DNA of 43,600 bases from Candidatus Peribacteria bacterium RIFCSPHIGHO2_02_FULL_53_20. GTDB taxonomy: Bacteria; Patescibacteriota; Gracilibacteria; Peribacterales; Peribacteraceae. The number at the start of each line of letters is the position of its first letter. The stretch's first letter is position 1. The notes beneath the pieces were generated by a model, which made no database searches, was not told where the DNA came from, and was given only the letters and a program-made list of their open reading frames with translations. Positions 5,067-20,866 of the stretch are shown one piece after another. Both the position numbers and the translations under genes were made by a program. The stretch covers positions 1 to 43,600 of the forward strand of contig MFXW01000005.1 of the NCBI GenBank assembly GCA_001787585.1, read 5' to 3'.

Positions 5067-6555
5067 GCAAATGTTCAAAGATCCGGCAGTACGCCGTGCC
5101 GTCATTCGTGAGAGCCATCTCTGGTTCTTTCTCTTCTATCTCTCCCATTACATGAAGTATGCGATGGCGTCCCTGCACCGGGAGATTTTCGCCATCACCG
5201 AGAACAAAGACATTCTCCGTGTGACGATCGTGGCGTTTCGTGGATCAGGGAAATCGACACTCATCACACTTTCCTATGTCCTGTGGTCAATCATGGGTAG
5301 TGAACAACGGAAGTTTATCCTGATCGTCGGAAGAACTCAGGAACAGGCTCGACAGATGCTAAAGAACATCCGAACGGAACTTGAGAACAACCGACTGTTG
5401 CGCCACGACCTTGGACCGTTCCGCGAGGAAGAGGATGAATGGCGTAATGCCTCTCTCGTTATCAGCAACTACGGCGTACGAATCATGGCTGTCTCCGTCG
5501 ATCAGAGCGTTCGCGGGCTTCGACATAAAGAGCACAGACCCGATTTGATCATCTGCGACGACATAGAAGACCTTGAATCCGTCCAGACGCGCGAGAGCCG
5601 CAATAAGACGCGCAATTGGGTAGTGAGTGAATTGGTGCCCGCAGGCGACATCGGCACGCGCTTCTTCCTCGTCGGAAATTACCTCCATGATGATTCCATG
5701 ACGCAACGTACGAAGGAGCAAATTGAGGAACAGAAAGATCGACATTCAGTCTATCGCAGCTATCCGCTCATCGATGATGCGGGCATCTGCCTCTGGCGCG
5801 AGAAGTATCCAGACGAAGCATCAATTCTCGCCGAATATGCGCGCGTGGGTGATGAATCGGCATGGCATCGCGAATACCTCCTCCATATTCTTTCCAATGC
5901 CGAGCGTGTCATTCATCCCGAGTGGATTCAGTACTACGATCAGCTTCCGAAAGAAGATCACGATGTTCGCACGGGTACGCGCGTACGGTTGGTTTGCATC
6001 GCGGTTGGGATCGACCTTGCGATTTCCCAGAGCGACAGTGCGGACTTCACGGCAATGGTCGGTGCGCGAATCTATTACGTTCGTGGCGAATACCACATCT
6101 ACATCCTGCCGAATCCGGTGAATGAACGCCTCACGGCGCTCGAAACGCTGCAGCGGTCTATGCAATTGGCTGATTGCACAAAAGAGGCTGGTAACCCAAC
6201 AAAGATCTATGTGGAGGATGTGGGTTACCAGGCTTCACTCGTCGAACACCTCAAGGAGAAGGGATATGAGGCAGAAGCCGTCAAAGTGAAAGGACAGGAC
6301 AAGCGTGGGCGGTTGGCACTTGCATCACACCCCGTACAGTCGGGACGGGTATTTTTCCCTCGTGAAGGAGCCGAAGAATTGATCGAGCAAATTGTGAATT
6401 TCGGCATCGAGAAACATGACGACCTCGCAGATGCTTTTTCCATGCTGATCATCAAGTCTTTAGAGGAGAAAATTGCCAGCTTTGGTTTCTGTTTTATTGG
6501 AGATGATGGGATTACGGGTTGGGACACAATTCATGGGGATATAGGGCATTCCTAA
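5029..6555 (+). CDS. terL: Terminase large subunit (ATPase + RNase-H-like nuclease)
   Basis: Walker A VAFRGSGKST and Walker B PDLIICDDIED. C-terminal nuclease-type acidic motifs GIDLAISQSDSADFTAMV and DDLADAF. The alternative ATG at 5071 starts 4 nt after the terS stop. Confidence 0.8.
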   Translation: METSPHSQKALIEQMFKDPAVRRAVIRESHLWFFLFYLSHYMKYAMASLHREIFAITENKDILRVTIVAFRGSGKSTLITLSYVLWSIMGSEQRKFILIVGRTQEQARQMLKNIRTELENNRLLRHDLGPFREEEDEWRNASLVISNYGVRIMAVSVDQSVRGLRHKEHRPDLIICDDIEDLESVQTRESRNKTRNWVVSELVPAGDIGTRFFLVGNYLHDDSMTQRTKEQIEEQKDRHSVYRSYPLIDDAGICLWREKYPDEASILAEYARVGDESAWHREYLLHILSNAERVIHPEWIQYYDQLPKEDHDVRTGTRVRLVCIAVGIDLAISQSDSADFTAMVGARIYYVRGEYHIYILPNPVNERLTALETLQRSMQLADCTKEAGNPTKIYVEDVGYQASLVEHLKEKGYEAEAVKVKGQDKRGRLALASHPVQSGRVFFPREGAEELIEQIVNFGIEKHDDLADAFSMLIIKSLEEKIASFGFCFIGDDGITGWDTIHGDIGHS

Positions 6556-6642
6556 GCGGAATTTAGGGGGAGTATCTCCTAGCCTTTCGGGTCGGGTCGC
6601 GGTCTTGTGTGGGGAGAATCTTACTTATTTCTCCCTCTACAA

Positions 6643-8010
6643 ATGGCGACTGCCACGACCAAATCACCGGCTCGAAACATGCTTATATCCATTCCTCAAG
6701 GAGACACACCGAAGCCAAAAATAGGGCTTCGGTACTGTCTCTATGCCCGTAAGTCATCCGAGGATGACGAACGCCAAGCCCTTTCTATTGAATCGCAGAT
6801 CAATGAGATGACCGCGATGGGGAAGCGTGATGGAATCGAGATCGTCGAAATCCGACGGGAAAGTCATTCAGCCAAGGCATCGAGTGCTCGGCCCGTGTAC
6901 AATCAGCTGCTCAAAGACATTCGTGAAGGTGAATTCAATGCCATTCTCACATGGGCACCGGATCGCTTGAGCCGCAATGCTGGCGACCTTGGAACGCTCG
7001 TCGATCTCATGGATCAGGGGCTGCTTCATGAGATCCGCACACACGGTCAGACGTTTACGAATAACCCCAACGAGAAGTTTCTGCTGATGATTCTCTGTTC
7101 TCAGGCAAAACTGGAAAACGATCATCGAGGCATCAATATCAAACGCGGAATGAAGACGCGAGCGGAGATGGGCTACCGACCGACGATGTCGCCGCTGGGA
7201 TATCTTACGACACGCGACATCGGAACCCAGTGGAGCCGCGTGGTGATGGATCCCATGCGAGGGCCGAGGATCAAGGAGATGTACGAACTCGTCGCTTACA
7301 AGGGATTCAGCGGACGCAAGCTCTACGCATGGATGAAAGAGGTAGGATTCGCGACCCGCAAAGGGAACACCGTAACGCTGAGCATGATTTACAGGATGCT
7401 CCGTAACCCCTTCTATCTGGGGACGTACGAGTTTCCGGCGGGAAGCGGCAAGTGGATCAAAGGCGACTACGAACCGTTGATAGAGAAGCAACTCTTCGAT
7501 GAGGTACAGCGACTGCTCGATGCAACACCAAAGAAACCATGGGGTACCAAGGACTTCGCCTTCACGCGGCTCATGACATGCGGAGCATGCGGAGCTGGAG
7601 TGACAGCCGAGGAGAAGAATAAAATACTCAAGGACGGTTCCATCAAGCGCTACGTCTACTACCGATGCACTCACACAAAGGATATTGATTGCCCTGAGCC
7701 GTCCATCCGAGAGGATCGCCTGATCGAACAAATGCTCAATATGATCGAGGATCTAACTCTTGAGACTGAGGCCATCAAGAAGAAGCTCGCAGAGGAATTT
7801 GAAAGACATTGGAAGTTTATGAACGGTGTCCTTGGGCATGCAGAGGGAGAGAAGGAATTGCCAAGGGTCGATAAGCGTAAGTACGCACGCTACCTCCTAA
7901 CGGAAGGCACCACCGAAGAGAAGCGTGCGCTGCTGGCGTGTCTCAAGAGCAAGATCATCCTGAAGGACGGGACACTGAAGATAGAGGATCAGAAGCCGCC
8001 AAAGAAGTAA
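6643..8010 (+). CDS. Large serine recombinase (resolvase/invertase catalytic domain + recombinase domain + Zn ribbon)
   Basis: YCLYARKSSEDDERQALSIESQ (catalytic Ser region), WAPDRLSRN, and the Zn ribbon CGACGAGV...YYRCTH. The track start at 6607 is GTG; the first ATG is 6643. Confidence 0.85.
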   Translation: MATATTKSPARNMLISIPQGDTPKPKIGLRYCLYARKSSEDDERQALSIESQINEMTAMGKRDGIEIVEIRRESHSAKASSARPVYNQLLKDIREGEFNAILTWAPDRLSRNAGDLGTLVDLMDQGLLHEIRTHGQTFTNNPNEKFLLMILCSQAKLENDHRGINIKRGMKTRAEMGYRPTMSPLGYLTTRDIGTQWSRVVMDPMRGPRIKEMYELVAYKGFSGRKLYAWMKEVGFATRKGNTVTLSMIYRMLRNPFYLGTYEFPAGSGKWIKGDYEPLIEKQLFDEVQRLLDATPKKPWGTKDFAFTRLMTCGACGAGVTAEEKNKILKDGSIKRYVYYRCTHTKDIDCPEPSIREDRLIEQMLNMIEDLTLETEAIKKKLAEEFERHWKFMNGVLGHAEGEKELPRVDKRKYARYLLTEGTTEEKRALLACLKSKIILKDGTLKIEDQKPPKK

Positions 8011-8093
8011 CATACTTGGAGAGTAATCATCATGAATTCTCATGTAGAATTACCTATGTGGATCCATTACAACCAACAATCGGGGCGCCGCGG

Positions 8094-9299
8094 ATGAGCA
8101 TAGGGATTGGATGTCCACCCGGTGCTGAACGATGCAATATCTCTGGAAAACCCGATCCACACAGCGGAACGATTGACGCAAAAGCGCAGCTATTGGACTC
8201 ACATGGCAAACTCCGAGGTGAAGCTCGTTACCGCATTACAGAAGATTTTATAGACTACGCTCAATCCCAAATGCCAGAGGGTCTGTATCTGGATTGGCTG
8301 CCGCGAAATTTAGGAGGCACACAACCGACTCAAGCAATGAAGCAGCAATCCCAAGTGAATTTTCAACACCATATCCAGACTTTTTTCTGCAATCATGCTT
8401 TTGCATATCTCGTGCTCGGCAAACTGGCAACTGGTCAAGATGTGGATCGTACCTTCGACACCAATGCGTTAGAAACTGCGTTTGCGTTTTCGGATGATCC
8501 ACCTAACCACGATGATTTTATCGCTCGACTACAAAAACTCAGTGCGACCGCTCACGGTACGGAATTGCTAAAGGAATTGGCATCGCTTCATATCGCCCTG
8601 TTCTATGGAGTCACCCTCCCGTCAGCAGAAGCATTTCTTGCCCGTTTGATGAAGCAAGGCTTGATCGAGAAGTGCTGCAAGAAAACGGGTTACAAGGTTC
8701 CGTATGGGGATAGGAATGCCGATACAGTCCTCTCATGTATCGAGCTGACGAAGGAAGGTCTAAGTTACAAAACAAGTGCGCCACAAACTGTTCGATGCTT
8801 TGTAGTTATGCCATTCGCAGGATTAGATTCTACTTATAAAGTAATCGAATCTGCTTGGCGCACAGTTTTTGGCGAAGCACCAATCATTCGGCAGGACAAA
8901 GATCCAGACGGAGGTGGTAGCCGTCTGATCGATGAAAAAATTCTCGTGAACATTGATTCTGCGTCTGTCGTCATAGCTGACCTTTCCCTCGGGGAGAGGG
9001 AACAGGAAGCTTATACTGCTTTGTCCACTGATTTGAGAGCTCGATTCGCACCGCTCAACCCTAATGTCATGTTTGAAGTGGGATACGCAATACGTTGTGC
9101 CCAGGACGATGATCAACGAGAGATTTTCCTGATCGCACAAAATCCTGCATGCCAGTTTCTCCAATCGCGGGTATTCGATTTGAGGAACAGAGCCATCCAT
9201 AGTTACGAGTCATCTGATGACGGGTTGCGGGCGTTGCACGCCACCCTCGTCGATTTCCTAGCCCACAAAAAAGGAAATGCATCAAAGCTGGAAAAATAG
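8094..9299 (+). CDS. Unknown N-terminal region + winged-helix-like segment + C-terminal TIR-like / nucleoside 2-deoxyribosyltransferase-like domain
   Basis: C-terminus: CFVVMPF...SASVVIADLS...NPNVMFEVGYA...IFLIA, the MPF / ADxS / NVxFExGY pattern of the NDT and CAP12/PycTIR-type TIR-like fold (recalled consensus). Middle segment LARLMKQGLIEKCCKKTGYKVPYGDRNADTVLSCIELTKEGL resembles a MarR-type wHTH. Start is uncertain (GTG 7938 overlaps the recombinase; ATG 8094). Confidence 0.6.
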   Translation: MSIGIGCPPGAERCNISGKPDPHSGTIDAKAQLLDSHGKLRGEARYRITEDFIDYAQSQMPEGLYLDWLPRNLGGTQPTQAMKQQSQVNFQHHIQTFFCNHAFAYLVLGKLATGQDVDRTFDTNALETAFAFSDDPPNHDDFIARLQKLSATAHGTELLKELASLHIALFYGVTLPSAEAFLARLMKQGLIEKCCKKTGYKVPYGDRNADTVLSCIELTKEGLSYKTSAPQTVRCFVVMPFAGLDSTYKVIESAWRTVFGEAPIIRQDKDPDGGGSRLIDEKILVNIDSASVVIADLSLGEREQEAYTALSTDLRARFAPLNPNVMFEVGYAIRCAQDDDQREIFLIAQNPACQFLQSRVFDLRNRAIHSYESSDDGLRALHATLVDFLAHKKGNASKLEK

Positions 9300-9320
9300 C
9301 CCTAAATCAACTAACATTCT

Positions 9321-9345
9321 GATAATAAGGTCTTACCTTATTATC
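9321..9345. repeat. Perfect 11-bp inverted repeat with 3-nt spacer (GATAATAAGGT-CTT-ACCTTATTATC)
   Basis: Read directly. It ends 8 nt before the ATG of the PLD-SNF2 gene and lies 22 nt after the stop of the wHTH/TIR-like gene. No downstream T-run. Confidence 0.9.
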
Positions 9346-9352
9346 TTAAGCT

Positions 9353-12300
9353 ATGCCTATTATCGACAACAATTCACAGACAATGCACGATGCGCTAATC
9401 AATGCACTCACAAGTGTAGATAGGGTAGATATTGAAGTAGGTTATTTTTATTTCTCAGGCTGGAAACTTCTTGCTGAACAACTCAGGGACAAAAAGATTC
9501 GCCTTCTGGTCGGTAAATATATTGACCCGGAGGCTATACCTGAACTTCTTTCAAAGATGAAACAGGAAGGAACGGATGTTGATCTCGATGCCTTCCAGTC
9601 GAGAAAGCCCATCCTATCTCGTGTGGCAAAGAAGCAAACCTACGTAAAGAGTTTTGTGAAGTTGTCTAATGAGTCTTCTCTGCTTGATGAAAGTGACAAT
9701 CAAGACGCCTATGGAATATTAGAGAGCAAAATCGCAGACGGCTCTCTTGAGATTAAAATCACCGCAAAACAGGAGCATGGAAAGATGTATATCTTGCACA
9801 ATAAGCCAAATTTCAGCCAGAACGGAGATTATCCCGGAACGGTATTTATGGGATCGAGTAATTTTACATTCCAGGGGCTACTCAATCAGGGGGAGTTAAA
9901 TGACCGCTATAGCGATAAGGAAAAATATACGAGTTATGTACAGAAATTTGAGTCCATGTGGTCTAACGCCGAGAATATTGATATCGCCACTTTGGATAAT
10001 AAGGATGAATTGCTCGATCAATTTAAAAAAGAGTTATGGGTTCATGCCTGTCCTACCCCCTATTCGGTGTACGTAAGAGTGCTGCATGAAATTTTTGGAA
10101 AAGAGGTCGATCAGAAAATCAAAACACCTGCGAAGATCACTCATGAAAAGTACGTGGATTTGGAATATCAAATTGATGCCATAAAATCTGTGATGGATAA
10201 GCTCCGGAAGTATGACGGTGTGATCGTGGCGGATGTTGTCGGTCTTGGGAAAAGCATTATTGCTTCTGCTGCCGCACATAACTTGGATTTGAATGCCATC
10301 ATTATCGCTCCTCCTCATTTGCGAGAGCAATGGGATGATTATCAAGCTGATTTTAAATTACCCGGTGCAAGATTCTACAGCTCCGGAGCGATTGCCGATG
10401 TCTATGAGAAGTTCAAAAACAATAATCAACCGCTGCTCATTATTCTTGATGAGGCACATAGATACAGGAACGAAGACACTGACGATTACCGAATGTTGCA
10501 CCACATTTGCAACAGCCACTCTGAAAATAAGGTTATTCTGTTAACGGCTACACCATTTAACAATGATCCAAAAGATGTATTTGCTCTCGTGAAGTTATTC
10601 CAAATACCGGGACAGTCCACCATTCGCTCAGTGGATAATCTCAGTTTACGTTTTAGAGAACTAATCGACAGGTACAAAAAGTTAAATCGTGACAGAAGAA
10701 CCGGAAAGATAGATCAAGCTGGCATTGATAAGGAGGCGGATGAGATATCCCTTGAATTACGTCGTTTAATCGAGAATATCGTCATACGGAGATCTCGTTT
10801 GGATTTGAAAGAGATCACGAGATATAGAGAAGACTTGGAAAGGCAGCACATAGATTTTGCAGATGTAGAAGGACCGGAGCTTCTGCAATATGACCTTGGG
10901 GATCTTTTGGATTTGTATTTGAGTACATTACTCAAAATTACCTCAGAAGATGAAGAAAACAGATTTGTGGGCGCTCGTTATAAGCCAGCCACATACATCA
11001 AAAACAGAGATGAGTTCATCAAATTGTATGGGAAGGATTTGGATGAGAGTGATCTGCAAACCGCTCAGACCAACTTGTCGAAGTTTATGAAGCGGCTTCT
11101 CGTGATGCGCTTTGAAAGCTCAAAGGATGCGTTTCGATCAACTTTGAAAAACATTATCGCTTCTCACCAGCTTATCGAGGACTGGTGGCATAAAGTGAAG
11201 AAGGTTCCGATCATGAAGAAGGGCAAAATACCTGATCCAGAATCAGTTTTGCTTACATCGGATGATAATCTGGACGAGGAAATAAAAGAACAGACGGACG
11301 ATACAGAACTTGAAAATCTAAAAGTCACGAAGGGACTTATCGCAGTTGATCGATCACTTATTGACCCGAAATTTATTGAGGACGTTTCTAATGATAAGAA
11401 GTTGCTCGAGGAAATACATGACAATTGGTTTGGGAAAGAGGCTGAAAAGCACAGGGAATTTGATCCTAAGCTTGATGAAGTGAAAAGTAGAATCGAGGAT
11501 CTTCTAAAAGATAATCCGTTGAGGAAGATCGTAATATTCTCTTCGTATGCCGATACCGTGAATTATTTGTTCAATGAATTGATTAAGCGCGGCATGCAAC
11601 GAGTGATCAAATACACTGCTGCGGATAGCAGTAAGGAGACAAAAAAAATCCTTCGAAAGAATTTTGATGCAGGCATCAAGGAAGAGGAGAAGGCTGATGA
11701 CTATGACGTTTTAATTGCAACAGATGCCCTCAGCGAGGGATACAACCTTCATCGGGCAGGCATCGTCATCAACTATGATATTCCGTACAATCCGACAAGG
11801 GTTATACAAAGAGTCGGTCGCATCAATCGTATTAACAAAAGAGTGTTCGACAAGCTCGGTGTCTATAACTGCTTCCCGACGGAGACAGGTGAATCAGAGA
11901 TTCGGGTGAAGCAGATTTCTACCTTAAAAATGCGTCTGATCAATGCCGTTGTTGGAAGTGATACAAAAACACTGACTGATGATGAAAAACTGCAAAGCTT
12001 CTTCAAGGATGAGTACCAGAAAGCTGAATCGGAAAACGAAATTATTTCATGGGACACGCCCCATAGAGAGGCATATGAGCAAGCGAAGAAAGACAAGCAT
12101 TCATTCGAGGAAGCCTTAGGCATTAAGCCACGCAGCCGTGTCATTCGTACTGGGCAGAAGAAGGAAGCCGTCGTTGCATTCGGCAAGAAAGGCGAACATG
12201 CCGTCTTTGCCCTTAAGGAAGAGTTGGCGCCGGCGATAGTTGCTGCGGAATTGGCATTGAATTATTTTGTTGCCAAAAAGGAAGAGGAGGGAAAGGAAGC

Positions 12301-12661
12301 AGATAAACAGTATGATGCAGTTTTTAAGATCGTACGAGACACGTTATTTGAAAAGCATCCATTGCCTGTTATTCGAGGAAGAAGATCTGATGCACTGAAT
12401 GTCGTAAAATTGATTGAAGAGAAAATGCCGAAAGCCAGAGATTACTGTCGTGATCTGGCTCAGATTATAAAAAAGTATGATGGCATTAGTGACGGTGATC
12501 TGAAATTGATTGCGAAGCTTAAACTGGAAGATGTACCTAGGGCGTATGAGGAACTGAGGATCGCTGTGCCAGAGCACCATATTGCTGCAATCAATGAGCG
12601 TGTTGCCCGCCTAGAAGGCGAATATGAAACAATTGTTCTTAGTGAAGAACTTCGCACATGA
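9353..12661 (+). CDS. PLD-family nuclease domain fused to SNF2/DEAH-type helicase (1102 aa)
   Basis: N-terminal PLD: ...EHGKMYILHNK...VFMGSSNFTFQGL (HxK...GSxN). Helicase motifs ADVVGLGKS (I), ILDEAHRYRN (II), LLTATPFNN (III), ATDALSEGYNLH, YNPTRVIQRVGRINR (VI). Confidence 0.9.
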   Translation: MPIIDNNSQTMHDALINALTSVDRVDIEVGYFYFSGWKLLAEQLRDKKIRLLVGKYIDPEAIPELLSKMKQEGTDVDLDAFQSRKPILSRVAKKQTYVKSFVKLSNESSLLDESDNQDAYGILESKIADGSLEIKITAKQEHGKMYILHNKPNFSQNGDYPGTVFMGSSNFTFQGLLNQGELNDRYSDKEKYTSYVQKFESMWSNAENIDIATLDNKDELLDQFKKELWVHACPTPYSVYVRVLHEIFGKEVDQKIKTPAKITHEKYVDLEYQIDAIKSVMDKLRKYDGVIVADVVGLGKSIIASAAAHNLDLNAIIIAPPHLREQWDDYQADFKLPGARFYSSGAIADVYEKFKNNNQPLLIILDEAHRYRNEDTDDYRMLHHICNSHSENKVILLTATPFNNDPKDVFALVKLFQIPGQSTIRSVDNLSLRFRELIDRYKKLNRDRRTGKIDQAGIDKEADEISLELRRLIENIVIRRSRLDLKEITRYREDLERQHIDFADVEGPELLQYDLGDLLDLYLSTLLKITSEDEENRFVGARYKPATYIKNRDEFIKLYGKDLDESDLQTAQTNLSKFMKRLLVMRFESSKDAFRSTLKNIIASHQLIEDWWHKVKKVPIMKKGKIPDPESVLLTSDDNLDEEIKEQTDDTELENLKVTKGLIAVDRSLIDPKFIEDVSNDKKLLEEIHDNWFGKEAEKHREFDPKLDEVKSRIEDLLKDNPLRKIVIFSSYADTVNYLFNELIKRGMQRVIKYTAADSSKETKKILRKNFDAGIKEEEKADDYDVLIATDALSEGYNLHRAGIVINYDIPYNPTRVIQRVGRINRINKRVFDKLGVYNCFPTETGESEIRVKQISTLKMRLINAVVGSDTKTLTDDEKLQSFFKDEYQKAESENEIISWDTPHREAYEQAKKDKHSFEEALGIKPRSRVIRTGQKKEAVVAFGKKGEHAVFALKEELAPAIVAAELALNYFVAKKEEEGKEADKQYDAVFKIVRDTLFEKHPLPVIRGRRSDALNVVKLIEEKMPKARDYCRDLAQIIKKYDGISDGDLKLIAKLKLEDVPRAYEELRIAVPEHHIAAINERVARLEGEYETIVLSEELRT

Positions 12662-15600
12662 ATCTGCAAACCGCTTATGATCGGGATACATACCTCGAAT
12701 TCCTCCGAACGTTTGTTCCGGGCTTCAAAGAGGACATCCGCAGTGCGGTGGCTGATAAGCTACAAGTGACGTCGAAAGCTTATTTTCTCGGGGAATCGGA
12801 AGACTTAGATTTATCTGTGTTTGAAATTACGCATTCATCGAGCACTGACGCTCGTGTATCGCTTTCAATGGACGGTTTCAAGCTAATGAAAACCAGCGCA
12901 ACATATCGAGCACTGATCGTCTATCGTTCTGAAAATAGCGAAGACTGGCGCTTTTCTCTCATGACAGCAACGCCGGATCTCGATGAGAAGGGAAAGGTGG
13001 TACGCAAACTTTCTAATCCGCGTAGATTCTCGTTTTTCCTAGGACCGAATGCCAAAATCAACACTCCGAAACGATTTTTGATCAAAGAAGGACCGGTAAG
13101 TGACTTTGCAGATTTACAGAATCGGTTCTCGCTGGAGGTGGTCAACAAGGAGTTCTATAAACAAATATCTGAAAAGTTCACACAGTTAGTTGGCGGTACA
13201 TTGGGAACCGGTAAGAAACAGAAAACCTACGAACCACTCATCAAATTACCTTCTCAATCTTCAAAAAGTCAGGAAAATATGGAGTTTGGCGTCCGACTGA
13301 TAGGACGCATTATTTTCTGCTGGTTCCTGCGTGAGAAGAAAAGCAAAAACAATCTTTCGTTGATGCCAGCGGAGTTACTTTCAAGCGGAGCAGTGTCAAA
13401 AAATTCTCATTATTACCATTCGATCCTCGAACCGATATTTTTTGAAGTACTCAATAAAGAACAGCGATCACGCCGGGAGGAATTTTCCGGCGAATCGTAC
13501 TCACTTATTCCGTATCTAAACGGAGGGCTATTCTCGCCACATAAAGATGACTACTACCAACGTCCGAATGGCGAGCAGTCGATTTTCCACAACACGCTTG
13601 TTATCCCTGATGCTTGGCTGAAGGAACTCTTTGAAATTCTGGAGACGTACAACTTCACTATTGACGAAAACACGAGTTTTGACGAAGAACTTTCCATTGA
13701 CCCGGAAATGCTTGGGCGCATCTTTGAAAACCTCCTTGCAGAGATCAATCCGGAAACCGGAGAATCGGCCCGTAAAAGCACAGGAAGCTACTACACGCCG
13801 CGTGTGATTGTTGATTATATGGTAGACGAAAGCCTCCTGCTCTATTTGCAGGAACACACGAAAATCCCCGAAGAAAAACTCCGAGCCGTTGTCAGTTACG
13901 ATTTAAGTGATGATGCGGAGTACAAGCTGACTGAGGAAGAAAAAAAGCTGGTTGTTCAAAGTTTAGGCAAGCTAAAACTACTCGACCCTGCTTGTGGCTC
14001 TGGCGCATTTCCTATCGGCGCACTGCAGAAGATTGTATTCATCCTTCAGCAGGTAGACCCAGATGGTAAGCACTGGTTGCAGAAACAACTGGAGAATGCA
14101 CATCCAGAATTCCGAAGGGATATTGAAAAGAAATTCTCCAATAGGGAACTGGATTTTCTTAGAAAGCTAGGAATTATTCGTGAGTGCATCTTCGGTGTAG
14201 ATATACAACCGATAGCGACTGAGATTGCACGGTTGCGCTGTTTCCTTACGCTTATCGTCGATGAACGCATTGATGATAAGGCAGAGAATCGAGGAATAAA
14301 GCCATTACCAAACCTCGACTTCAAATTTGTAACAGCAAATAGTCTCATTAATCTGCCTAAATTGGAGGAATCAATCCAATCAGCCATGTTTGATGATCAG
14401 CAAGGGATCAGCGATCTGAAAACAATTCGCGATCAATACTTCAATGCGTATGGTTTAGAAAGGGAACAGTTAAAAACTGAATTTATAACGGCACAGAAGC
14501 GGCTTGTAGATAAACTTGTGGAAGAGCATGGATATATGGGTGTTGCAAAGGCAGAATTAACCCAGAAACTCACAAGCTGGGAACCGTTTAGTCATAGTTC
14601 ATCTGGGTGGTTTGATCCTGAATGGATGTTCGGAATAAGTGATGGATTTAATATTGTGATTGCGAATCCTCCGTATGTTGATTCTGAATCCATGGCAAAA
14701 AATTATTCAGAACAACGCGAAAAATATAAAGACATTTTTGAAACTACAAAAGGAAACTGGGACCTATTTGTTCCTTTTATTGAAAGAGGATTCAATCTAA
14801 TAAATAAGGTCGGGTATTTATCGTATATAATCCCCAATAAACTGATTGCGGCAAAATATGCTATTGTCCTTAGAGAGTTCATATCTACAAAGATGGTTAG
14901 TGAAATTAGGGACTATTCAAGGTTACCTGTATTTGTGGAGGCTGATGTCTATCCCGTAACTCTCACAGCTGGGAATTCATCACCAAACAATGATGACAAA
15001 ACAAATTTCGCAACTATGGGGGCATTGGATCGGGTAAAATTTGCCAACACTTGTAATAGCACGCTCTTAAAAGATCATTCATATTGGGACATCTTTTTTT
15101 ATGAAGAAAAGATTTTTAAACTTCTCATAAAGTTACTGAGCCATACCAAATTGAAAAAGAATGGAGTTTCATTACTTGGTGCAGCGACAGTCGATGAAGC
15201 CTACAAAATAAAGAATTTAATTTGTGATTCTGAAGATACTAATCTAGCAATGAAGATGGTTAATACGGGTACTATTGATAAGTATCAATCTTTGTGGGGC
15301 GTTCGAGAAATGCAATACTTAAAGCAGAAATACAAGAACCCCATTGTTAAAAAAGAAGATATTCAGAAACTGAGCTCGACTCGTCTATCTCAGGCTGAAT
15401 CAAGAAAAATAATTATTGCTGGCATGAGCAATAAGATTGAAGCATATTATGACGATGGAGAATATTTAGCTGGTAAGTCTACAAGCATAATATTGGGTGA
15501 GCGAGAAATTTTATTGACACTTATAGGAATTCTGAATTCCAAGCTGGTCGATTTTTTTGTAAATCAATATTTCAAATCACTTAAAATGAGCGGTGGCTAT

Positions 15601-15792
15601 ATCAATATAAATAAAGATGTTCTTGAGAACATTCCAATTGCCACAAGGAAAAACGTTCCACTATTAAATTTAGTCAGCAAAATGAATCAATCACCTGACA
15701 ATAACACTAAACAGAGGATTGATCAGATGGTGTATGAACTTTATAAATTGACCCCAGAAGAGATTGAAATTGTTGAAAGTTCCAGCAAGTAG
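12658..15792 (+). CDS. Eco57I/PglX-like gamma-class N6-adenine DNA methyltransferase with C-terminal target-recognition domain (1044 aa)
   Basis: GSYYTPRVIVDYMV, motif I LLDPACGSGAFPIGA, motif IV VIANPPYV, and a TRD-like LIGILNSKLVDFFV. ATGA overlap with the helicase stop at 12658-12661. No PD-ExK motif seen in the N-terminal 200 aa. Confidence 0.9.
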   Translation: MNLQTAYDRDTYLEFLRTFVPGFKEDIRSAVADKLQVTSKAYFLGESEDLDLSVFEITHSSSTDARVSLSMDGFKLMKTSATYRALIVYRSENSEDWRFSLMTATPDLDEKGKVVRKLSNPRRFSFFLGPNAKINTPKRFLIKEGPVSDFADLQNRFSLEVVNKEFYKQISEKFTQLVGGTLGTGKKQKTYEPLIKLPSQSSKSQENMEFGVRLIGRIIFCWFLREKKSKNNLSLMPAELLSSGAVSKNSHYYHSILEPIFFEVLNKEQRSRREEFSGESYSLIPYLNGGLFSPHKDDYYQRPNGEQSIFHNTLVIPDAWLKELFEILETYNFTIDENTSFDEELSIDPEMLGRIFENLLAEINPETGESARKSTGSYYTPRVIVDYMVDESLLLYLQEHTKIPEEKLRAVVSYDLSDDAEYKLTEEEKKLVVQSLGKLKLLDPACGSGAFPIGALQKIVFILQQVDPDGKHWLQKQLENAHPEFRRDIEKKFSNRELDFLRKLGIIRECIFGVDIQPIATEIARLRCFLTLIVDERIDDKAENRGIKPLPNLDFKFVTANSLINLPKLEESIQSAMFDDQQGISDLKTIRDQYFNAYGLEREQLKTEFITAQKRLVDKLVEEHGYMGVAKAELTQKLTSWEPFSHSSSGWFDPEWMFGISDGFNIVIANPPYVDSESMAKNYSEQREKYKDIFETTKGNWDLFVPFIERGFNLINKVGYLSYIIPNKLIAAKYAIVLREFISTKMVSEIRDYSRLPVFVEADVYPVTLTAGNSSPNNDDKTNFATMGALDRVKFANTCNSTLLKDHSYWDIFFYEEKIFKLLIKLLSHTKLKKNGVSLLGAATVDEAYKIKNLICDSEDTNLAMKMVNTGTIDKYQSLWGVREMQYLKQKYKNPIVKKEDIQKLSSTRLSQAESRKIIIAGMSNKIEAYYDDGEYLAGKSTSIILGEREILLTLIGILNSKLVDFFVNQYFKSLKMSGGYININKDVLENIPIATRKNVPLLNLVSKMNQSPDNNTKQRIDQMVYELYKLTPEEIEIVESSSK

Positions 15793-15793
15793 C

Positions 15794-16717
15794 ATGGCAA
15801 GTCCTAATCCAACAAAACATCAGCACTTTGTGCCTCTCTTTTATCTTAAGAATTTTGCTGACAATGACGGGTATCTTGATGTGCTCAATATCAAAGAAAA
15901 AAGGATGGCAAAACGACGACCATATCAGGGACTGGGTTATGAATATTACTACTACGCAGTCAATACCGGCATGCCCGATGATACGTCGCAACAGGTTGAG
16001 GAATGGTTGAAGCCAACTGAAGATTATCTTGCCAAGCAACTACCGAGAATCATTGATGTAATACTTCAAAATCAGCAGATAGAAGACAATGACCGATATA
16101 TTCTTGCTGTATTAATGAGCATGCTCTGGTTGAGAACCCCGAGTATGAGAAACGATATACAACAAACGGAAGACCAGATGGTCGAGCAGATAAAGAGATT
16201 GCACGGAACAGAATATGCCAATCAATTGAGAAGTACGGACAACATCACGCATCTCAAATTCATGGTCGAAACATTGGGCTTTGGTGGCCCAGGCTTCACA
16301 AATCTCTTTTTCTCCATGAAATGGAAAGCGTACATCGCACGGGGAAAAGAAGTTTTTATTACATCGGACTCACCTGTTGTTGAAAAATTTCCGCCACCAA
16401 CCAGTTTCTGGGGAGCACATTCCTTTTTAGAAAGGAATAAGTATTTTGCTCTTACTCCAGATATTCTTTTTGAGTTAACTGAGCCAGTTGGATCTACCAA
16501 AGTTAGGCGTAAGACTATCTATGAAGAAGACGATGACATTGTCAAAACTCTAAACATGATTCTTATAAGTGGTGCTCAAGATTATGCATATTCAGGAAGT
16601 AGAATATGTCTTGATCAGATTTTGGCTGGCAGAAACAATCCTGGATATCTTGAAAAGAAGTATTTGGAACAGTATGAAAAGCCGTGGGCTGAATATCATG
16701 CAAAAATGAGAACATAA
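15794..16717 (+). CDS. DUF4238-like protein
   Basis: N-terminus MASPNPTKHQHFVPLFYLKNF matches the recalled DUF4238 opening (HyvPqfYLrnF). ATG 15794 lies 1 nt after the methylase stop; the track start at 15764 is TTG. Confidence 0.65.
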   Translation: MASPNPTKHQHFVPLFYLKNFADNDGYLDVLNIKEKRMAKRRPYQGLGYEYYYYAVNTGMPDDTSQQVEEWLKPTEDYLAKQLPRIIDVILQNQQIEDNDRYILAVLMSMLWLRTPSMRNDIQQTEDQMVEQIKRLHGTEYANQLRSTDNITHLKFMVETLGFGGPGFTNLFFSMKWKAYIARGKEVFITSDSPVVEKFPPPTSFWGAHSFLERNKYFALTPDILFELTEPVGSTKVRRKTIYEEDDDIVKTLNMILISGAQDYAYSGSRICLDQILAGRNNPGYLEKKYLEQYEKPWAEYHAKMRT

Positions 16718-16847
16718 TAACCAAAAAAGTGGGACAGAGATGGATTGAAAAAATAGCGAAAAATGGAGCGTTCTTCACTCAAAATAACCATGTCGCGCAC
16801 CCGCAACCTCTTCCCGCCTTCGCCCTGCAGAGCTACGATAATCCTGT

Positions 16848-17588
16848 ATGCGAAAGAAAAATATCTTTAATCCGGCGTCTACAGAGCCATACAAGCTCAG
16901 CCGCTCTCGACTGGACCGGTTTCTTAAGTGTCCCTGCTGCTTCTACATGGATCGCAGACTAGGAGTGGATCAAGTATCGGGTCCGGCATTCACGCTCAAT
17001 AGCGCAACGGATACACTTCTGAAGAAAGAATTTGATGTTTGCAGGGCAAAAGGAATACCACACCCTCTCATGAAGAAACATAAAGTGAATGCCATTCCCT
17101 TCAAGCATCCTGATATCGACATATGGAGGGAAAACTTCAAAGGAGTGCAGCATCTTCATAAACCCACTAATCTGCTCATTACGGGGGCAGTGGATGATGT
17201 ATGGGTGGATCCAAAGGGCAACTTGAGCGTTGTGGACTACAAATCGACCAGCACCACCAAAGAAATAGACCTGAATGACGGAACTCCGTGGAAAGACGGC
17301 TACAAGCGTCAGATGGAGATTTACCAGTGGCTACTGCGTCAAAATGGATTCAAGGTGAATGACATTGGATATTTCGTCTATGTGAATGCCGATACGGATC
17401 AAGATGCATTCGACGGAAAATTAGTCTTCGATGAAGAAATCATTGTGCATAAAGGGGACGACAGCTGGGTAGAGCAGGCCATCATCGACGCTCACAAGTG
17501 TCTACGGAGGAAGAAGATACCGAAGGGTTCGGAGGGTTGTGAGTGGTGCGTGTATCGTGCGGATGCTTCAAAAGTTCTCGGCGCTTGA
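16848..17588 (+). CDS. Cas4/RecB-like PD-(D/E)XK nuclease with flanking Cys cluster
   Basis: GAVDDVWV...VVDYKS...QMEIYQWLL (D...DxK...QxxxY). Cysteines at KCPCCFY (N-terminal) and CLRRK...GCEWC (C-terminal), as in Fe-S Cas4-type nucleases. Confidence 0.75.
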   Translation: MRKKNIFNPASTEPYKLSRSRLDRFLKCPCCFYMDRRLGVDQVSGPAFTLNSATDTLLKKEFDVCRAKGIPHPLMKKHKVNAIPFKHPDIDIWRENFKGVQHLHKPTNLLITGAVDDVWVDPKGNLSVVDYKSTSTTKEIDLNDGTPWKDGYKRQMEIYQWLLRQNGFKVNDIGYFVYVNADTDQDAFDGKLVFDEEIIVHKGDDSWVEQAIIDAHKCLRRKKIPKGSEGCEWCVYRADASKVLGA

Positions 17589-17635
17589 TATTGCCGAGAA
17601 TGGTAAAAAATTCCACGTAGTCTTCGATCTGGGAT

Positions 17636-17665
17636 TTGGAGCTCAGTATATTCGGAGTGTATAAT
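17636..17665 (+). promoter_or_regulatory. Candidate sigma70-type promoter for tRNA-Arg (TTGGAG-18 nt-TATAAT)
   Basis: TTGGAG at 17636-17641 and TATAAT at 17660-17665, embedded in the palindrome GTGTATAATACAC, about 80 nt upstream of the tRNA. Confidence 0.3.
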
Positions 17666-17745
17666 ACACACATGTCCACTCTGAGGTTTATGCATCGGCC
17701 CGTTGCCGCCCATAGTGGCTATCAAAGAAGACGGAGGTAAATCAT

Positions 17746-17820
17746 GCCTCCGTAGTTCAACGGAAAGAATGCCCTGGTTCTAACTGGGAGATGTGGGTTC
17801 GATTCCTGCCGGGGGCACCA
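17746..17820 (+). tRNA. tRNA-Arg(UCU): tRNA-Arg, anticodon UCU, genomically encoded CCA
   Basis: Hand-folded cloverleaf. Acceptor GCCTCCG/CGGGGGC (one G.U), D-loop with GG, anticodon loop GTTCTAA, T-arm GTGGG-TTCGATT-CCTGC, then A-CCA. One U.U mismatch in the anticodon stem lowers confidence in the isotype. Confidence 0.72.
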
Positions 17821-17917
17821 AATTCACAGAACAGCAAATCTCTTTGTATTTGAGCTCAATGCCTACTTGTATCAACATCTACTCTAAAAGTAAGGTACTA
17901 TTACCGTTCTAGTAAGT

Positions 17918-18679
17918 ATGACAACATCAGATTCCACAGCACTGGAGAAAATGGAACGACTTCAAACCATTTTATCTAGTGAAAAGAAAGAAAAAGAAAA
18001 GTTTGGAGAAGCACAAAATCTGTATGCTGAGCTTGAAGATTTGATAATTGAAATTGATCCTATAACTCCATACAAAGTTGAATTTATTCGAGGAAGTCCG
18101 ATTCTGTGCAAGACAGACATTTATGCTGGTTATTTCACAGGCATGCTGGATTACAGAGGAAAAGGAGAAATGCAACTAAGGAAAGTAATTGCAAAGCTCA
18201 AGAACAGGGAGTCTTCTTTAGAAAAGAAGACACCAGCCCAGCACTCACCAATGGAAATGGTGATAAGAATTATGAAAAATTTTCGCGCATGTTGTCAATT
18301 TTCTAAGCACCCTACTTCTGAAAAAGAGGTGCAGGATATTTTGTGGATAATGCTTAGAGGTGCTTTCAGCTTAATCAGAGAAGAAACACTTCCAAAGTTT
18401 GCGGCCAAAAGTTATATACCAGACTTTGCAATCCCAGAAGTCAGGGCTTTAGTAGAAGTAAAATTTATTGGAGAAAAGACCCAACCAAAACATATCCAAG
18501 AAGAGATACTTGCTGATATTCAGCCATACCTTAAAAATACTGGGGACTATGAATCCGTGATCGTATTTATTTATGATCATGCGAATAAGATAAAGGATGA
18601 ATCAAAATTTGTATCTGATTTGGAGGCTGTGGAAGGTATTCACTGCGTAATTATCATGCACAGCATAGCATCAACATAA
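17918..18679 (+). CDS. Hypothetical protein with C-terminal PD-(D/E)XK-like nuclease motif
   Basis: EKEVQDILWIML...SYIPDFAIPEVRALVEVKFIG fits E...PD...(E)xK. N-terminal half is coiled-coil-like/unknown. Motif-level call only. Confidence 0.5.
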   Translation: MTTSDSTALEKMERLQTILSSEKKEKEKFGEAQNLYAELEDLIIEIDPITPYKVEFIRGSPILCKTDIYAGYFTGMLDYRGKGEMQLRKVIAKLKNRESSLEKKTPAQHSPMEMVIRIMKNFRACCQFSKHPTSEKEVQDILWIMLRGAFSLIREETLPKFAAKSYIPDFAIPEVRALVEVKFIGEKTQPKHIQEEILADIQPYLKNTGDYESVIVFIYDHANKIKDESKFVSDLEAVEGIHCVIIMHSIAST

Positions 18680-18765
18680 AAAAGAAGTGATTTAATCATT
18701 TCCTGATAAGCTCCCATAGGGCGCACCAATCTTTATAATCGGATAGTCTATACTACTTTTAAAAT

Positions 18766-20115
18766 ATGACAGCCTTCCTAACACCACGACTCGAACAAGC
18801 AATGGAACTCGCAATACGGGTCCATGGACCTATGAAGCGGAAGGGTGATGATCAGCCTTATCTAGTCCATCCAATGAGCGTTTTGGCCTTGCTTGTCCAA
18901 TGGGGTTCAGATGAGGACACCTGCATCGCAGGGCTCCTCCATGATGTGATCGAGGATGCCGAAGATGATTCCAAGCGAGCGAAATACCGGAAAGAGATCG
19001 AAGAGAAATTCGGCAGGGAGGTACTGGAAATCGTGGAGGGCGTGACCGAGCAGGATAAATCATTGCCGTGGAAGGAGCGGAAAATGCTCTATTTGAAGCA
19101 TCTGAAAGAAGCATCCGAAGCATCACTGCTCGTGAGCTGCGCGGATCGGACACATAACATGTCGTCCCTGGTCGAGAGCTACAGGAATGAAGGGGAAGAA
19201 GTGTGGAAGCGATTCAATGCCGGAAAGGAGCAGCAAATTTGGTTTGTCAGGAGTGTCTTTGAGATCCTTCATAAGCGACTTGGGTCGCCCTACACAGAGG
19301 ATCTGGAGCAAACAATGATGAAGCTGGAGAATGTTTCTGCGGAGTCGTCTGTCGCGGTTGGAGATGATGCTCAACAAAAATTGGTGAAGTTCACCGCTAA
19401 AGAATTTCTGAAGATTGCGGAGATTGCTAAGTCGTTCGTTGAGAAGGGAACAGCCGACAATCCTCCCAAGTTCGTCATTATGACGGGTGGCCCCGGTGCA
19501 GGGAAATCAACGATACGCAAGCGGGACTACAGTCAGGGGTATGTGCATTTTGATCCCGGCGACATCTTTGCAGAGATGAGAAAAATTAAGGACGAAAGCA
19601 ATGTGAAATTTAACGCCTCTATTTCGTTTACCTGCGAATTACTTTTGAGACAAGCGATAGAGGAAAGGAAGAACATCGTCACGGAGGTCATCGGAGATAC
19701 GTACGAACCCCTCAAGTCTATTATGGATAAAATGCTTGAGATTGGTTATACGATTGATGTCCGGGCCGTTACAGCCGATGTTGCAGAATCATATCAACGG
19801 CATCTCAAGGCAGTAAAAGAAGATCCTGGCTATCTTTCAGCAGCCTTAACACAAGGCACCACTCTATCTACTTTTTCACATGTTCTCGAAATAGAAGTTA
19901 CGGGTAAAAAGGATAGAACCTTTCAAAAAACAACACCGGAGAAATATCTTGAATCCTACAATACAGCCGTAGAAGCTGCTCGCGGGAAAATCAGAACTGG
20001 TAAAGACGATCTGGAGAAGCAAAAAACTTGTCCTCATGACTTTGATAGTCTAATCGGAGATCTACTCCATGGCCCGTGTGTTTGTAGCGATTGCGGAAAG
20101 GCAATTGCCAACTGA
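18766..20115 (+). CDS. Fusion: SpoT/Mesh1-type HD (small-alarmone-hydrolase-like) domain + zeta-toxin/AAA_33-like P-loop kinase + C-terminal Zn ribbon
   Basis: HD domain: YLVHPMSVLALL...IAGLLHDVIEDAEDD...VSCADRTHNM. P-loop: FVIMTGGPGAGKSTIRKRDY... with a kinase-like core. C-terminus CPHDFDSLIGDLLHGPCVCSDCG. Confidence 0.8.
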   Translation: MTAFLTPRLEQAMELAIRVHGPMKRKGDDQPYLVHPMSVLALLVQWGSDEDTCIAGLLHDVIEDAEDDSKRAKYRKEIEEKFGREVLEIVEGVTEQDKSLPWKERKMLYLKHLKEASEASLLVSCADRTHNMSSLVESYRNEGEEVWKRFNAGKEQQIWFVRSVFEILHKRLGSPYTEDLEQTMMKLENVSAESSVAVGDDAQQKLVKFTAKEFLKIAEIAKSFVEKGTADNPPKFVIMTGGPGAGKSTIRKRDYSQGYVHFDPGDIFAEMRKIKDESNVKFNASISFTCELLLRQAIEERKNIVTEVIGDTYEPLKSIMDKMLEIGYTIDVRAVTADVAESYQRHLKAVKEDPGYLSAALTQGTTLSTFSHVLEIEVTGKKDRTFQKTTPEKYLESYNTAVEAARGKIRTGKDDLEKQKTCPHDFDSLIGDLLHGPCVCSDCGKAIAN

Positions 20116-20212
20116 CGATACGGATGATCTTTCTGGCTACCTTACTTTCAAGAACAACGCGCGTAAAAACCTTTGAAGTCAGCCAAGGAAACATCGTCTG
20201 CCGAAAGGGATC

Positions 20213-20842
20213 TTATTTCGTTACCAGATGTTCTGCTACAAATTTGGCATACCAAGAGAATACTGGTTGCAGCAACGGAAGCAATTTTACAGCTATAAAG
20301 AGAAGTGCCAAAAGAGCACAAAGGGAAGCAAAACGCCGAAAAGCCTCTTTGCTTACTTTCATAAAGAACAAATTGATACGCGTGGGCGGAGCGGCAATTT
20401 CCTCATACCATTTTCTTGTATCGCCCCAAAGCAAGATCAAGAACCATTTACAGATAAAGTATGTCATCCAATTGCGGAGGTAGACGTGGATGTCGCGCCT
20501 TGCCCGGACCATGCTATCGGATCGGCGAACGAGGCCATAGTCTTCAAGTATCAGATCAATATTTTTCCTTGGGAATGTCCTTTCATGAATAGTGCCTGCA
20601 AAGCCAATTGGTGATGCAAATTCGTAGGCTCTATCAGATGAATCAAGTGGCTTCGATGACAGCCATATCTGAATGTATCTATCAGCCAGCCACATTTTCC
20701 AGCCAGTCCCTCGTGCTGGTCTGTTATTCCGTAGCAATACCCATACATGAAACGGGGCAATAAAAAGAACAAACACGGCTACGATCGCAATCCATGCAAG
20801 ATTGTCCAGAGCGATGCGAAATAAATAGGCAATGAGTTCCAT
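20213..20842 (-). CDS. Multi-pass membrane protein (2-3 predicted TM helices), unknown family
   Basis: From ATG 20842: MELIAYLFRIALDNLAWIAIVAVFVLFIAPFHVWVLL..., WMTYFICKWFLILLWG, FASLCALLALLFIAVKLLPLL. Starts 24 nt after the DUF4062 gene stop on the same strand. The track start at 20860 is TTG. Confidence 0.6.
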   Translation of the reverse strand: MELIAYLFRIALDNLAWIAIVAVFVLFIAPFHVWVLLRNNRPARGTGWKMWLADRYIQIWLSSKPLDSSDRAYEFASPIGFAGTIHERTFPRKNIDLILEDYGLVRRSDSMVRARRDIHVYLRNWMTYFICKWFLILLWGDTRKWYEEIAAPPTRINLFFMKVSKEAFRRFASLCALLALLFIAVKLLPLLQPVFSWYAKFVAEHLVTK

Positions 20843-20866
20843 GTAATGAGAATTATACAAGATTGG

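Follow-up and report, generated by a model that had tools for sequence, protein, structure and literature searches.

We analysed a 43,600-nucleotide stretch of contig MFXW01000005.1 from Candidatus Peribacteria bacterium RIFCSPHIGHO2_02_FULL_53_20 (the whole of this stretch is called the window below) and concentrated on a block of five co-directional genes between positions 8094 and 17588. Two of these genes, encoding a phospholipase D (PLD)-SNF2 helicase protein and an Eco57I-like adenine methylase, form a pair that resembles a restriction-modification (R-M) system, and we found that this pair is a widespread, conserved two-gene restriction-like module without a name so far. The genes of the block are arranged as follows.

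8094..9299, plus strand: gene 1, a rare NDT/TIR-like accessory, assigned by fold and motif
9353..12661, plus strand: gene 2, the core R-like subunit (Pfam PLDc_2 at residues 17-203, SNF2-rel_dom and Helicase_C)
12658..15792, plus strand: gene 3, the core M/S-like subunit (Pfam Eco57I, 1.8e-32; TaqI_C at residues 889-994; weak DUF7814/MmeI matches)
15794..16717, plus strand: gene 4, a DUF4238 protein in the slot 3' of the methylase gene (Pfam PF14022 DUF4238, 7.6e-30)
16848..17588, plus strand: gene 5, a Cas4/RecB-like PD-(D/E)XK nuclease with a CxxC...CxxC pattern (Pfam PDDEXK_1, 1.8e-12)

A first-pass annotation of this DNA had described five plus-strand open reading frames (ORFs) with four short junctions, lying between a serine recombinase and a tRNA in A+T-richer DNA, and every part of this description is exact. 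Gene 1 ends 53 nt before gene 2, genes 2 and 3 share an ATGA stop/start overlap, gene 4 follows gene 3 after a gap of 1 nt ('tagcATG'), and 130 nt separate gene 4 from gene 5. The recombinase (6607-8010) and a tRNA-Arg (17746-17820) lie on either side, and the G+C content (GC) of the block is 0.424 versus 0.497 on its left and 0.537 on its right; the low-GC island continues beyond the block to a tRNA-Ala at ~22320. The start of gene 1 was placed at the first in-frame ATG past the recombinase stop at 8010, and its mechanically called ORF reaches further 5', to a GTG at 7938. Gene 4 has an alternative ORF start, a TTG at 15764, which falls within gene 3. The island was recovered from several metagenomes at 99.5-100% identity, and independent gene calls on such near-identical contigs reproduce the coordinates of genes 1-4; for gene 5 they give a later start and a product of 213 residues, and the 246-residue form listed here is backed by a conserved N-terminus, including C28 and C31, in five homologues.

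Related loci, about 100 in all and labelled L001 and so on, were gathered for comparison: 80 species-level genome loci (of at least 579 confirmed matches), 14 full-length loci from IMG/VR and several metagenome loci, out of a total of more than 4,600 gene 2 homologues. An Eco57I-like methylase gene homologous to gene 3 lies directly downstream of the gene 2 homologue, on the same strand, in 83 of the 84 non-redundant loci with enough downstream DNA, and the two genes mostly overlap by 4-17 nt, usually by 4 nt. The helicase-coupled, R-M-like core that the first-pass annotation had proposed is thus borne out by the census. The hosts of the pair include Patescibacteria, Bacillota, Bacteroidota, Planctomycetota, Cloacimonadota, Elusimicrobia and Methanothrix, together with IMG/VR contigs. 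Separately, a clade made up of L049 and L058 (titled Phocaeicola sp.), L060 (Phocaeicola paurosaccharolyticus) and L062 (an unclassified bacterium, metagenome-assembled genome) has a conserved gene of ~330-340 residues between the PLD-SNF2 and methylase genes (for example, L049 13221-14240), and L067 and L070 have a different gene of ~279 residues at the same place.

The gene 2 protein comprises an N-terminal PLD nuclease domain with a single HKD motif, a SNF2-type superfamily 2 (SF2) ATPase/translocase and a conserved C-terminal region. Across 16 homologues, the PLD residues H142, K144 and G167-S-S-N170, the GLGKS Walker A motif (K300) and the DEAH box (366-369) are invariant, as are TATP (398-401) and the motif VI residues Q819, R820, G822 and R823. 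The top PADLOC model is C3a139 'HKD+Snf2' (1.8e-34), followed by DrmD, and a sequence search of the PDB returned only generic SF2 helicases (Hef, RapA, Chd1). The gene 3 protein is a gamma-class N6-adenine methyltransferase of the Eco57I/PglX/type IIG-like kind, in which a nuclease-like N-terminal domain, a helical spacer, the gamma-class methylase and a TaqI_C target recognition domain (TRD) follow one another. Both motif I (DPACGSGAF, 443-451) and motif IV (NPPY, 670-673) are intact; the top PADLOC model is REase_MTase_IIG (1.7e-70), and the PDB sequence search returned M.TaqI only. In the D...ExK-like motif of the N-terminal domain, D51 and E56 are kept and the window reads D51...E56-I-T58; the lysine position is occupied by Lys in 11 of 61 family sequences and by Thr in the window. 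Since the motif lacks a conserved lysine, the PLD domain of gene 2 is the likely nuclease of the pair, and the nuclease-like domain of gene 3 is probably structural.

The methylase core is 74-80% identical to those of L001 and L087, whereas the TRD cannot be aligned with either, and the swappable segment runs from ~14680 to 15716 with a GC of 0.34 versus 0.44 for the methylase core. At the DNA level, the window and L001, its nearest relative, are 84% identical over 9351-14679 and 89% identical over 16885-17548; what lies in between, namely the TRD and the DUF4238 gene, is unaligned and has the lowest GC of the block (0.34-0.40). Swapping of the TRD is expected of a working specificity subunit; that it is replaced between close relatives, as read from these alignments, while the cores remain 74-90% identical is characteristic of R-M systems subject to diversifying selection. 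In a population variant that is 99.5% identical (L099), the methylase (L099 5566-8700) is split into ORFs of 694 and 258 residues by small indels, among 14 gap positions over 10.5 kb; the split may be a natural frameshift or phase variant, or an assembly error.

The second feature of these loci is a variable position 3' of the methylase gene. We defined a slot gene as a co-directional ORF of at least 90 residues that starts between -30 and +100 nt from the methylase stop. Counted in this way, 41 of 65 loci have a gene in the slot, whereas 9 of 80 have one upstream of the helicase (Fisher p = 5e-11). BLASTP (E <= 1e-4) linked 35 of the 39 slot genes neither to one another nor to any gene of the window; the other four are two split-off pieces of methylase, the Cas4-like gene of L001, which matches gene 5, and the DUF4238 gene of L087, which matches gene 4. 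Pfam matches in the slot include ApeA-HEPN, TIR_2/SEFIR, KAP NTPase, UvrD, AAA_13, AAA_15/AAA_21 (OLD/Gabija-like), SMC_N, DUF2971 and Band_7; about two thirds of the slot genes have no Pfam match, and PADLOC, run on the 35 slot genes, returned mostly generic ABC/OLD-type ATPase models. In the loci with the layout methylase, gene X, Cas4-like gene, X is the DUF4238 gene in the window, a UvrD-like gene in L012, a gene of 948 residues in L104 and one of 293 residues in L010, and it is missing in L001. Because about 40 genes of other loci, unrelated to one another, sit equally close to the methylase in this slot, the 1-nt gap before gene 4 is a trait of the position and not a signature of DUF4238.

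Gene 4 itself is a full-length DUF4238 domain: it scores 104.7 bits against PF14022 (gathering threshold 27), with residues 20-279 covering positions 2-279 of the 281 in the profile, and it matches the PADLOC DUF4238-Pers model at 6.2e-4 only. BLASTP and a purpose-built hidden Markov model (HMM) place a DUF4238 gene in the slot in the lineage of the window and in L087 only; L043 has one upstream of its helicase. The HMM was built from 59 homologues and run on all ORFs of 140 loci, where L043 was its sole addition; the idea that DUF4238 genes are hidden by divergence in other loci was rejected, as the one gene gained lies outside the slot. DUF4238 is absent from 84 of the 86 helicase-seeded loci and also from L001, whose helicase is 90% identical and whose Cas4-like gene overlaps the methylase stop. 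In L087, the helicase, methylase and DUF4238 proteins are 71%, 74% and 72% identical to those of the window, and the methylase-DUF4238 junction (stop, 1 nt, ATG) is homologous to that of the window at the DNA level. Since this junction is conserved, the linkage is old, and the methylase and DUF4238 genes are probably co-transcribed in the window/L087 lineage.

Elsewhere, the family is found without the pair. Of six DUF4238 lineages compared, four (L090, L092, L141 and the P0147 locus; 48-67% identical) have the gene by itself, near serine recombinases, on a contig resembling a conjugative element or in another defence island, and these contexts are consistent with DUF4238 acting alone. Single-gene activity is documented for one member only, encoded at a P2 hotspot, which defends E. 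coli against phage T7 (Rousset et al. 2022, PMC9122126). The AlphaFold2 (AF2) model of gene 4 is confident (predicted local distance difference test score, pLDDT, 91; predicted template modelling score, pTM, 0.89), and a Foldseek search of the PDB with this model gave no significant fold match (best E 0.46). The invariant residues of the family include H11, P14, Y17, R114, D192, E197 and R214.

Gene 5 encodes a Cas4/RecB-like PD-(D/E)XK nuclease with CxxC cysteines; the scores against the Cas4 families themselves lie below their cut-offs. The invariant residues are C28, C31, D116/D117, D130-Y-K132, Q155..Y159, C231 and C234. A CRISPR Cas4 was considered and rejected (TIGR00372, 26.9 bits versus a cut-off of 65; Pfam Cas_Cas4, 18.1 versus 22.7), and no cas genes were seen among the ORFs of the island. 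Homologues of gene 5 accompany the pair in one sub-clade only, where the identities of the Cas4-like protein and of the helicase to those of the window are 90% and 90% in L001, 74% and 71% in L087, 57% and 54% in L104, 55% and 54% in L012, and 47% and 56% in L010; L039 has a fragment of the gene only, and in L087 the gene has moved upstream and is inverted. From these paired identities, the Cas4-like gene co-diverges with the core, and if the pair has a genuine third partner in the sub-clade, this gene is the strongest candidate. On the plus strand at 16790..16813, 24 nt (ATGTCGCGCACCCGCAACCTCTTC) can be aligned to the opening of the Cas4-like gene in L001 (ATGATACGTACCCGCAACCTCTTC) and are a relic duplicate of the gene's 5' end. 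The relic ATGTCGCGCACCCGCAACCTCTTC is in another reading frame than the live start at 16848, and of the two it is the closer match to where the L001 gene begins; it is likely a scar left by recombination at the border of the variable segment.

Gene 1 has no match in Pfam, PADLOC or NCBIfam, and its family has 8 homologues among 5.8 billion proteins. Its C-terminal domain (residues ~232-395) was modelled by AF2 with a pLDDT of 76-92, and Foldseek matched this domain to the SARM1 TIR domain (5e-4) and to plant TIRs as well as to DNPH1 and NDT, which superimpose better (TM-score ~0.7). The domain holds the motif NPNVMFEVGYA with an invariant E328, in which we take 'NVMFEVGYA' to resemble the catalytic Glu motif of the NDT type. 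The TIR-like description given to gene 1 earlier may hold at the level of fold and motif only, and finds no counterpart among the TIR models of Pfam or PADLOC; residues 1-231, with a pLDDT of 33-59, have no profile match for the winged helix. None of the 86 helicase-seeded loci contains gene 1, which was found beside the pair in the own lineage of the window only; judged by its neighbourhoods, it is outside the conserved core. In L094 (3767-10387), a type I hsdR-hsdM-hsdS operon has a homologue of gene 1 (48% identical) in fourth place, translationally coupled and overlapping hsdS by 4 nt, with an Mrr gene and a serine recombinase nearby; as an observation apart, this homologue shows the same pattern of appendage to an R-M operon as the slot genes. 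Other homologues stand alone in L093 and beside a HATPase_c_3 gene in L096.

We compared the block with named defence systems, and no named multi-gene system matches it gene for gene in PADLOC, NCBIfam, Pfam or the system definitions, as the first-pass annotation had supposed. These collections gave only sub-threshold or partial matches, to DrmD, DrmMI, BrxH, PglX, HmaA, DpdE and PbeA, and the block was not assigned to DISARM, BREX, Hma/BR or ARMADA, since the window lacks the genes that define them. The likeness to class 1 DISARM lies in the combination of a SNF2-type helicase, an Eco57I/PglX-like adenine methylase and a PLD nuclease, with DrmD and DrmMI among the top matches. However, class 1 DISARM has a separate PLD nuclease, DrmC, whereas here PLD and SNF2 share one polypeptide; the scores reach 125.7 bits for NCBIfam DISARM_DrmD versus a cut-off of 610, and 65.9 bits, over part of the protein, for PADLOC DrmMI. 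Neither DrmB (DUF1998) nor a full-length, above-threshold DrmA (a YprA-like helicase) was found among the ORFs of 6.6-22 kb, where gene 2 gave a weak partial DrmA match (3.3e-14). BREX type 3 (BrxHII and PglXI) and ARMADA type II (ArmA and ArmB) likewise set a SNF2/RapA-like helicase beside a PglX-like methylase, but BREX needs PglZ and BrxC, ARMADA needs a YprA helicase-nuclease and a UvrD-RelE protein, and the SNF2 proteins of BREX-3 and ARMADA have a TUDOR N-terminus in place of the PLD domain of the window. PglZ and BrxC had no match in the island, and the PglX models score 51-66 bits versus cut-offs of 400-500.

The Hma/Type-2 BR system consists of an HKD-Swi2/Snf2 helicase, an N6-methylase, a DUF499 ATPase and DUF3780 (PMC12839542). 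It is alike in its proposed R-M-like logic and in the N-terminal HKD domain fused to a Swi2/Snf2 motor beside an N6-adenine methylase, and the HKD-Swi2/Snf2 fusion is present in gene 2 (PLDc_2, SNF2-rel_dom and Helicase_C, with HxK and GSSN invariant). It differs in that the HmaA HMM covers the helicase C-domain only (74.5 bits) and that the methylase here is Eco57I/type IIG-like; DUF499 and DUF3780 are absent among the window ORFs scanned and were not among the Pfam matches of the slot and flanking genes examined. The domain order of gene 3, with gamma-class motifs and a C-terminal TRD on one chain, is that of the type IIG/IIL enzymes MmeI, Eco57I and Cj0031. Such type IIG enzymes, however, need no motor-nuclease, whereas this methylase is almost always paired with one and its catalytic lysine is not conserved. 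Cj0031-like type II R-M genes with an adjacent PLD+SNF gene were listed by Milman et al. 2023 and were neither named nor studied there. We found no paper that names or tests the PLD-SNF2/methylase pair in the literature searched, the coverage of which was incomplete.

CglI/NgoAVII (an R-PLD protein with an H-helicase), SauUSI, Type ISP and Type III enzymes offer mechanistic models for the pair. They are not the same: CglI carries PLD on its recognition subunit, the helicases belong to other families (DEAD-Z1, Rad25-like), and SauUSI is modification-dependent and works without a methylase. This comparison of PLD/motor restriction enzymes draws partly on two articles (PMC5861437 and PMC7049714). 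The single-gene DUF4238 defence is a further relative of the block; it sits alone in a P2 prophage hotspot (Rousset et al. 2022), whereas gene 4 sits 1 nt after a methylase gene. Among the known systems, we take the DefenseFinder name of the DUF4238 system to be 'Rst_DUF4238'.

Upstream of the block lie the recombinase and, before it, a provirus-like block at 1292-6555.

2502-3854: ParB_N and N6_N4 methylase fusion, in the provirus-like block
3851-4624: second N6_N4 methylase, in the provirus-like block
4560-5066: HTH_Tnp_1_2 protein, possibly the small terminase, in the provirus-like block
5029-6555: large terminase, in the provirus-like block and upstream of the recombinase
6607..8010, plus strand: large serine recombinase (Pfam Resolvase, Recombinase and Zn_ribbon_recom)

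No further structural phage genes were seen within the window, and a megablast search with 8000-20200 gave no match in the phage collection and one 37-nt chance match in the plasmid collection. Serine recombinases 49-53% identical to that of the window adjoin the PLD-SNF2/methylase pair in six other loci (L038, L039, L106, L107, L108 and L116), and more distant ones lie near it in several further loci; the pair is also found on 14-16 IMG/VR contigs. Because the pair adjoins related recombinases elsewhere, it travels on such elements, some of which are predicted proviruses, and the recombinase at 6607-8010 is the likely mobiliser of the cassette.

Taken together, we consider that the block is probably a mosaic: a defence operon or island, carried by an element with a serine recombinase, in which an R-M-like pair is joined by a variable slot and a clade-specific Cas4-like partner, and not a five-subunit system. 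ATP-dependent restriction enzymes use an SF2 motor that translocates from the recognition event, cleavage needs two nuclease domains, and PLD proteins with a single HKD motif act as dimers. By analogy, the methylase would read a specific sequence through its TaqI_C-type TRD and N6-methylate the adenines of the host; on unmodified DNA it would recruit or license the PLD-SNF2 protein, which would then translocate on double-stranded DNA. Cleavage may follow dimerisation or collision of the motors, as in Type ISP, Type III, CglI and SauUSI, and two PLD-SNF2 chains would have to meet to cut because each carries a single HKD motif. The slot 3' of the methylase would be an insertion-tolerant, co-transcribed position that holds differing and mostly self-sufficient defence genes in each lineage. 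The Cas4-like nuclease perhaps processes the ends of the cleaved DNA or degrades it, DUF4238 and gene 1 are probably separate defence layers, and gene 1 may be an independent accessory that also attaches to type I R-M operons. Several points weigh against this interpretation. The ORFs in the compared loci were called mechanically; of the more than 4,600 homologues, the census takes in 80 genome loci, 14 full-length viral loci and a handful from metagenomes; many slot genes are unannotated, so that the description 'mostly defence genes' extrapolates from the annotated ones. A junction with a 1-nt gap that is kept over ~28% protein divergence would also be expected from functional coupling. Moreover, we infer the interaction of the gene 2 and gene 3 proteins, and the phenotype of the pair, from synteny and from analogy with DrmD/DrmMI, BrxHII/PglXI and ArmA/ArmB, and complex formation, collision of translocating motors and defence by the pair are put forward on this footing. 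The order of the genes and its conservation, the variability of the slot, the intact catalytic motifs and the swapping of the TRD are observations.

The position of the slot admits another reading, which we regard as possible and clearly the weaker of the two: the pair may be a chassis with a plug-in position, set in one clade between the methylase gene and the co-evolving Cas4-like gene, into which different lineages bring unrelated effectors (DUF4238, ApeA-HEPN, TIR, KAP, UvrD, OLD-like ATPases) that the R-M complex holds in check and that fire when it is inhibited, DUF4238 being one such guard. The slot genes would then be back-up effectors, restrained by the pair and freed when an anti-restriction protein of a phage disables it. 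The slot lies specifically 3' of the methylase and is tightly or translationally coupled to it (41/65 versus 9/80), the DUF4238 junction is conserved in L087, the slot gene of L062 is an AAA_13 (RloC/PrrC-type) ATPase, and a gene 1 homologue is likewise appended to a type I R-M operon; a precedent is the PrrC anticodon nuclease, which is embedded in the EcoprrI type I R-M locus. Auxiliary or back-up effectors beside BREX and BR systems have also been proposed by comparative analysis (PMC12839542). All of this has to be set against the fact that DUF4238 acts as a single gene elsewhere (PMC9122126) and that close DUF4238 homologues occur without an R-M pair nearby. In addition, unrelated genes of defence islands are typically tightly packed too, and ApeA-type genes work as single genes. 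It is improbable, in our view, that DUF4238 is an obligate third subunit, co-translated as the first-pass annotation had read from the near-zero spacing, and that the five genes form one system. The 1-nt gap, the same junction in L087 and the co-divergence of the three proteins (71/74/72%) speak for it, yet the neighbourhood census has already largely refuted it: DUF4238 is missing from L001 and 84 of the 86 helicase-seeded loci, unrelated genes fill the slot elsewhere just as tightly, DUF4238 homologues occur by themselves, one of them with single-gene activity, and gene 1 is in none of the 86. The recurrent co-localisation of the block genes thus holds for genes 2 and 3 and, within its sub-clade, for the Cas4-like gene, and fails for gene 1 (lineage of the window only) and DUF4238 (outside that lineage, L087 and L043 only).

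The setting of the block could also suggest that the pair serves the mobile element, with the methylase shielding the DNA of the element from host restriction and the PLD-SNF2 protein taking part in replication, exclusion or addiction. Serine recombinase, terminase and ParB-methylase genes lie near the pair in the window, and the pair recurs beside homologous recombinases and on 14-16 IMG/VR contigs. Most of its loci, however, are ordinary chromosomal contexts without phage genes, and TRD swapping and a motor-fused nuclease suit restriction better than self-protection, so that we give a role for the element little credence; prophages commonly carry defence systems, and both readings can hold together. 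Least plausible of all is that the block is a decayed remnant of class 1 DISARM, BREX-3, ARMADA or Hma/BR type 2, to which the weak HMM matches (DrmD, DrmMI, BrxHII, PglX and HmaA) and the SNF2 plus PglX-like methylase module common to those systems might point. In 83 of 84 loci, from many phyla, the two-gene layout lacking DrmA/B, PglZ/BrxC, YprA and DUF499/DUF3780 is conserved and its motifs are intact, and the scores are far under the curated cut-offs (for DrmD, 125.7 versus 610 bits).

The preferred reading, a restriction-like pair in a mosaic island, concerns a family with thousands of members across bacterial phyla, archaea and proviruses, of which a passing mention in Milman et al. 2023 and the PADLOC candidate model 'HKD+Snf2' were already at hand. 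The best PADLOC match of gene 3 suggests that annotation tools will label the methylase as a solitary type IIG enzyme. Being related to the SNF2 plus PglX-like modules of DISARM-1, BREX-3, ARMADA and Hma/BR, yet minimal and self-contained, the pair could serve as a two-protein model for the sensing of unmethylated DNA. The hypervariable slot may be a practical discovery tool, with about two thirds of its occupants unannotated and in the same place as known stand-alone defence genes, and DUF4238 offers a confidently predicted fold without a solved relative. If the guard architecture were true, it would amount to a general, modular design of restriction plus guard effector, with DUF4238 as one guard.

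Downstream of the block, the low-GC island and its right border carry the following features.

17746..17820, plus strand: tRNA-Arg(TCT) with an encoded CCA end (ARAGORN and Rfam), inside the low-GC island between the Cas4-like and DpnII-like genes
17918-18679, plus strand: DpnII/MboI-like restriction endonuclease C-terminal-domain protein (PADLOC Aga_Helical-REase, 3.8e-30; Pfam)
18766-20115, plus strand: fusion of HD_4 and Zeta-toxin kinase (Pfam/PADLOC)
20213-20860, minus strand: ORF, no family given
20867-22075, minus strand: DUF4062 protein (Pfam/PADLOC)
~22320, minus strand: tRNA-Ala(TGC), the end of the island
from 22439, within 22320-24671: two tandem PurP paralogues (DUF1246/DUF1297, FAICAR synthetase), confirmed as PurP by cluster look-up

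PurP genes are typical of archaea, and on this gene content the chromosome was taken to be of archaeal type. An HD_4 gene is also found in L087, where it is 62% identical to the N-terminus of the fusion in the window. An Rfam scan of 6-23 kb gave the two tRNAs and nothing else. A search of 1-27000 for direct repeats matching the tRNA ends gave short chance repeats only and none of the 3' end of tRNA-Arg; the tRNA-Arg(TCT) may therefore be borne by the element rather than be its attachment site.

The regulatory signals of the block were also scanned. The bacterial terminator scan gave no plus-strand terminator in any of the four junctions, and the bacterial promoter scan gave fewer promoter-like sites than in shuffled controls; scans of this kind would say nothing about an archaeal host. 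By eye only, we noted an AT-rich element, gataataagg, at ~9321-9330, 25-30 nt 5' of the gene 2 ATG; an archaeal TATA box would sit there if the transcript were leaderless, and such a box would separate the promoter of genes 2-4 or 2-5 from gene 1.

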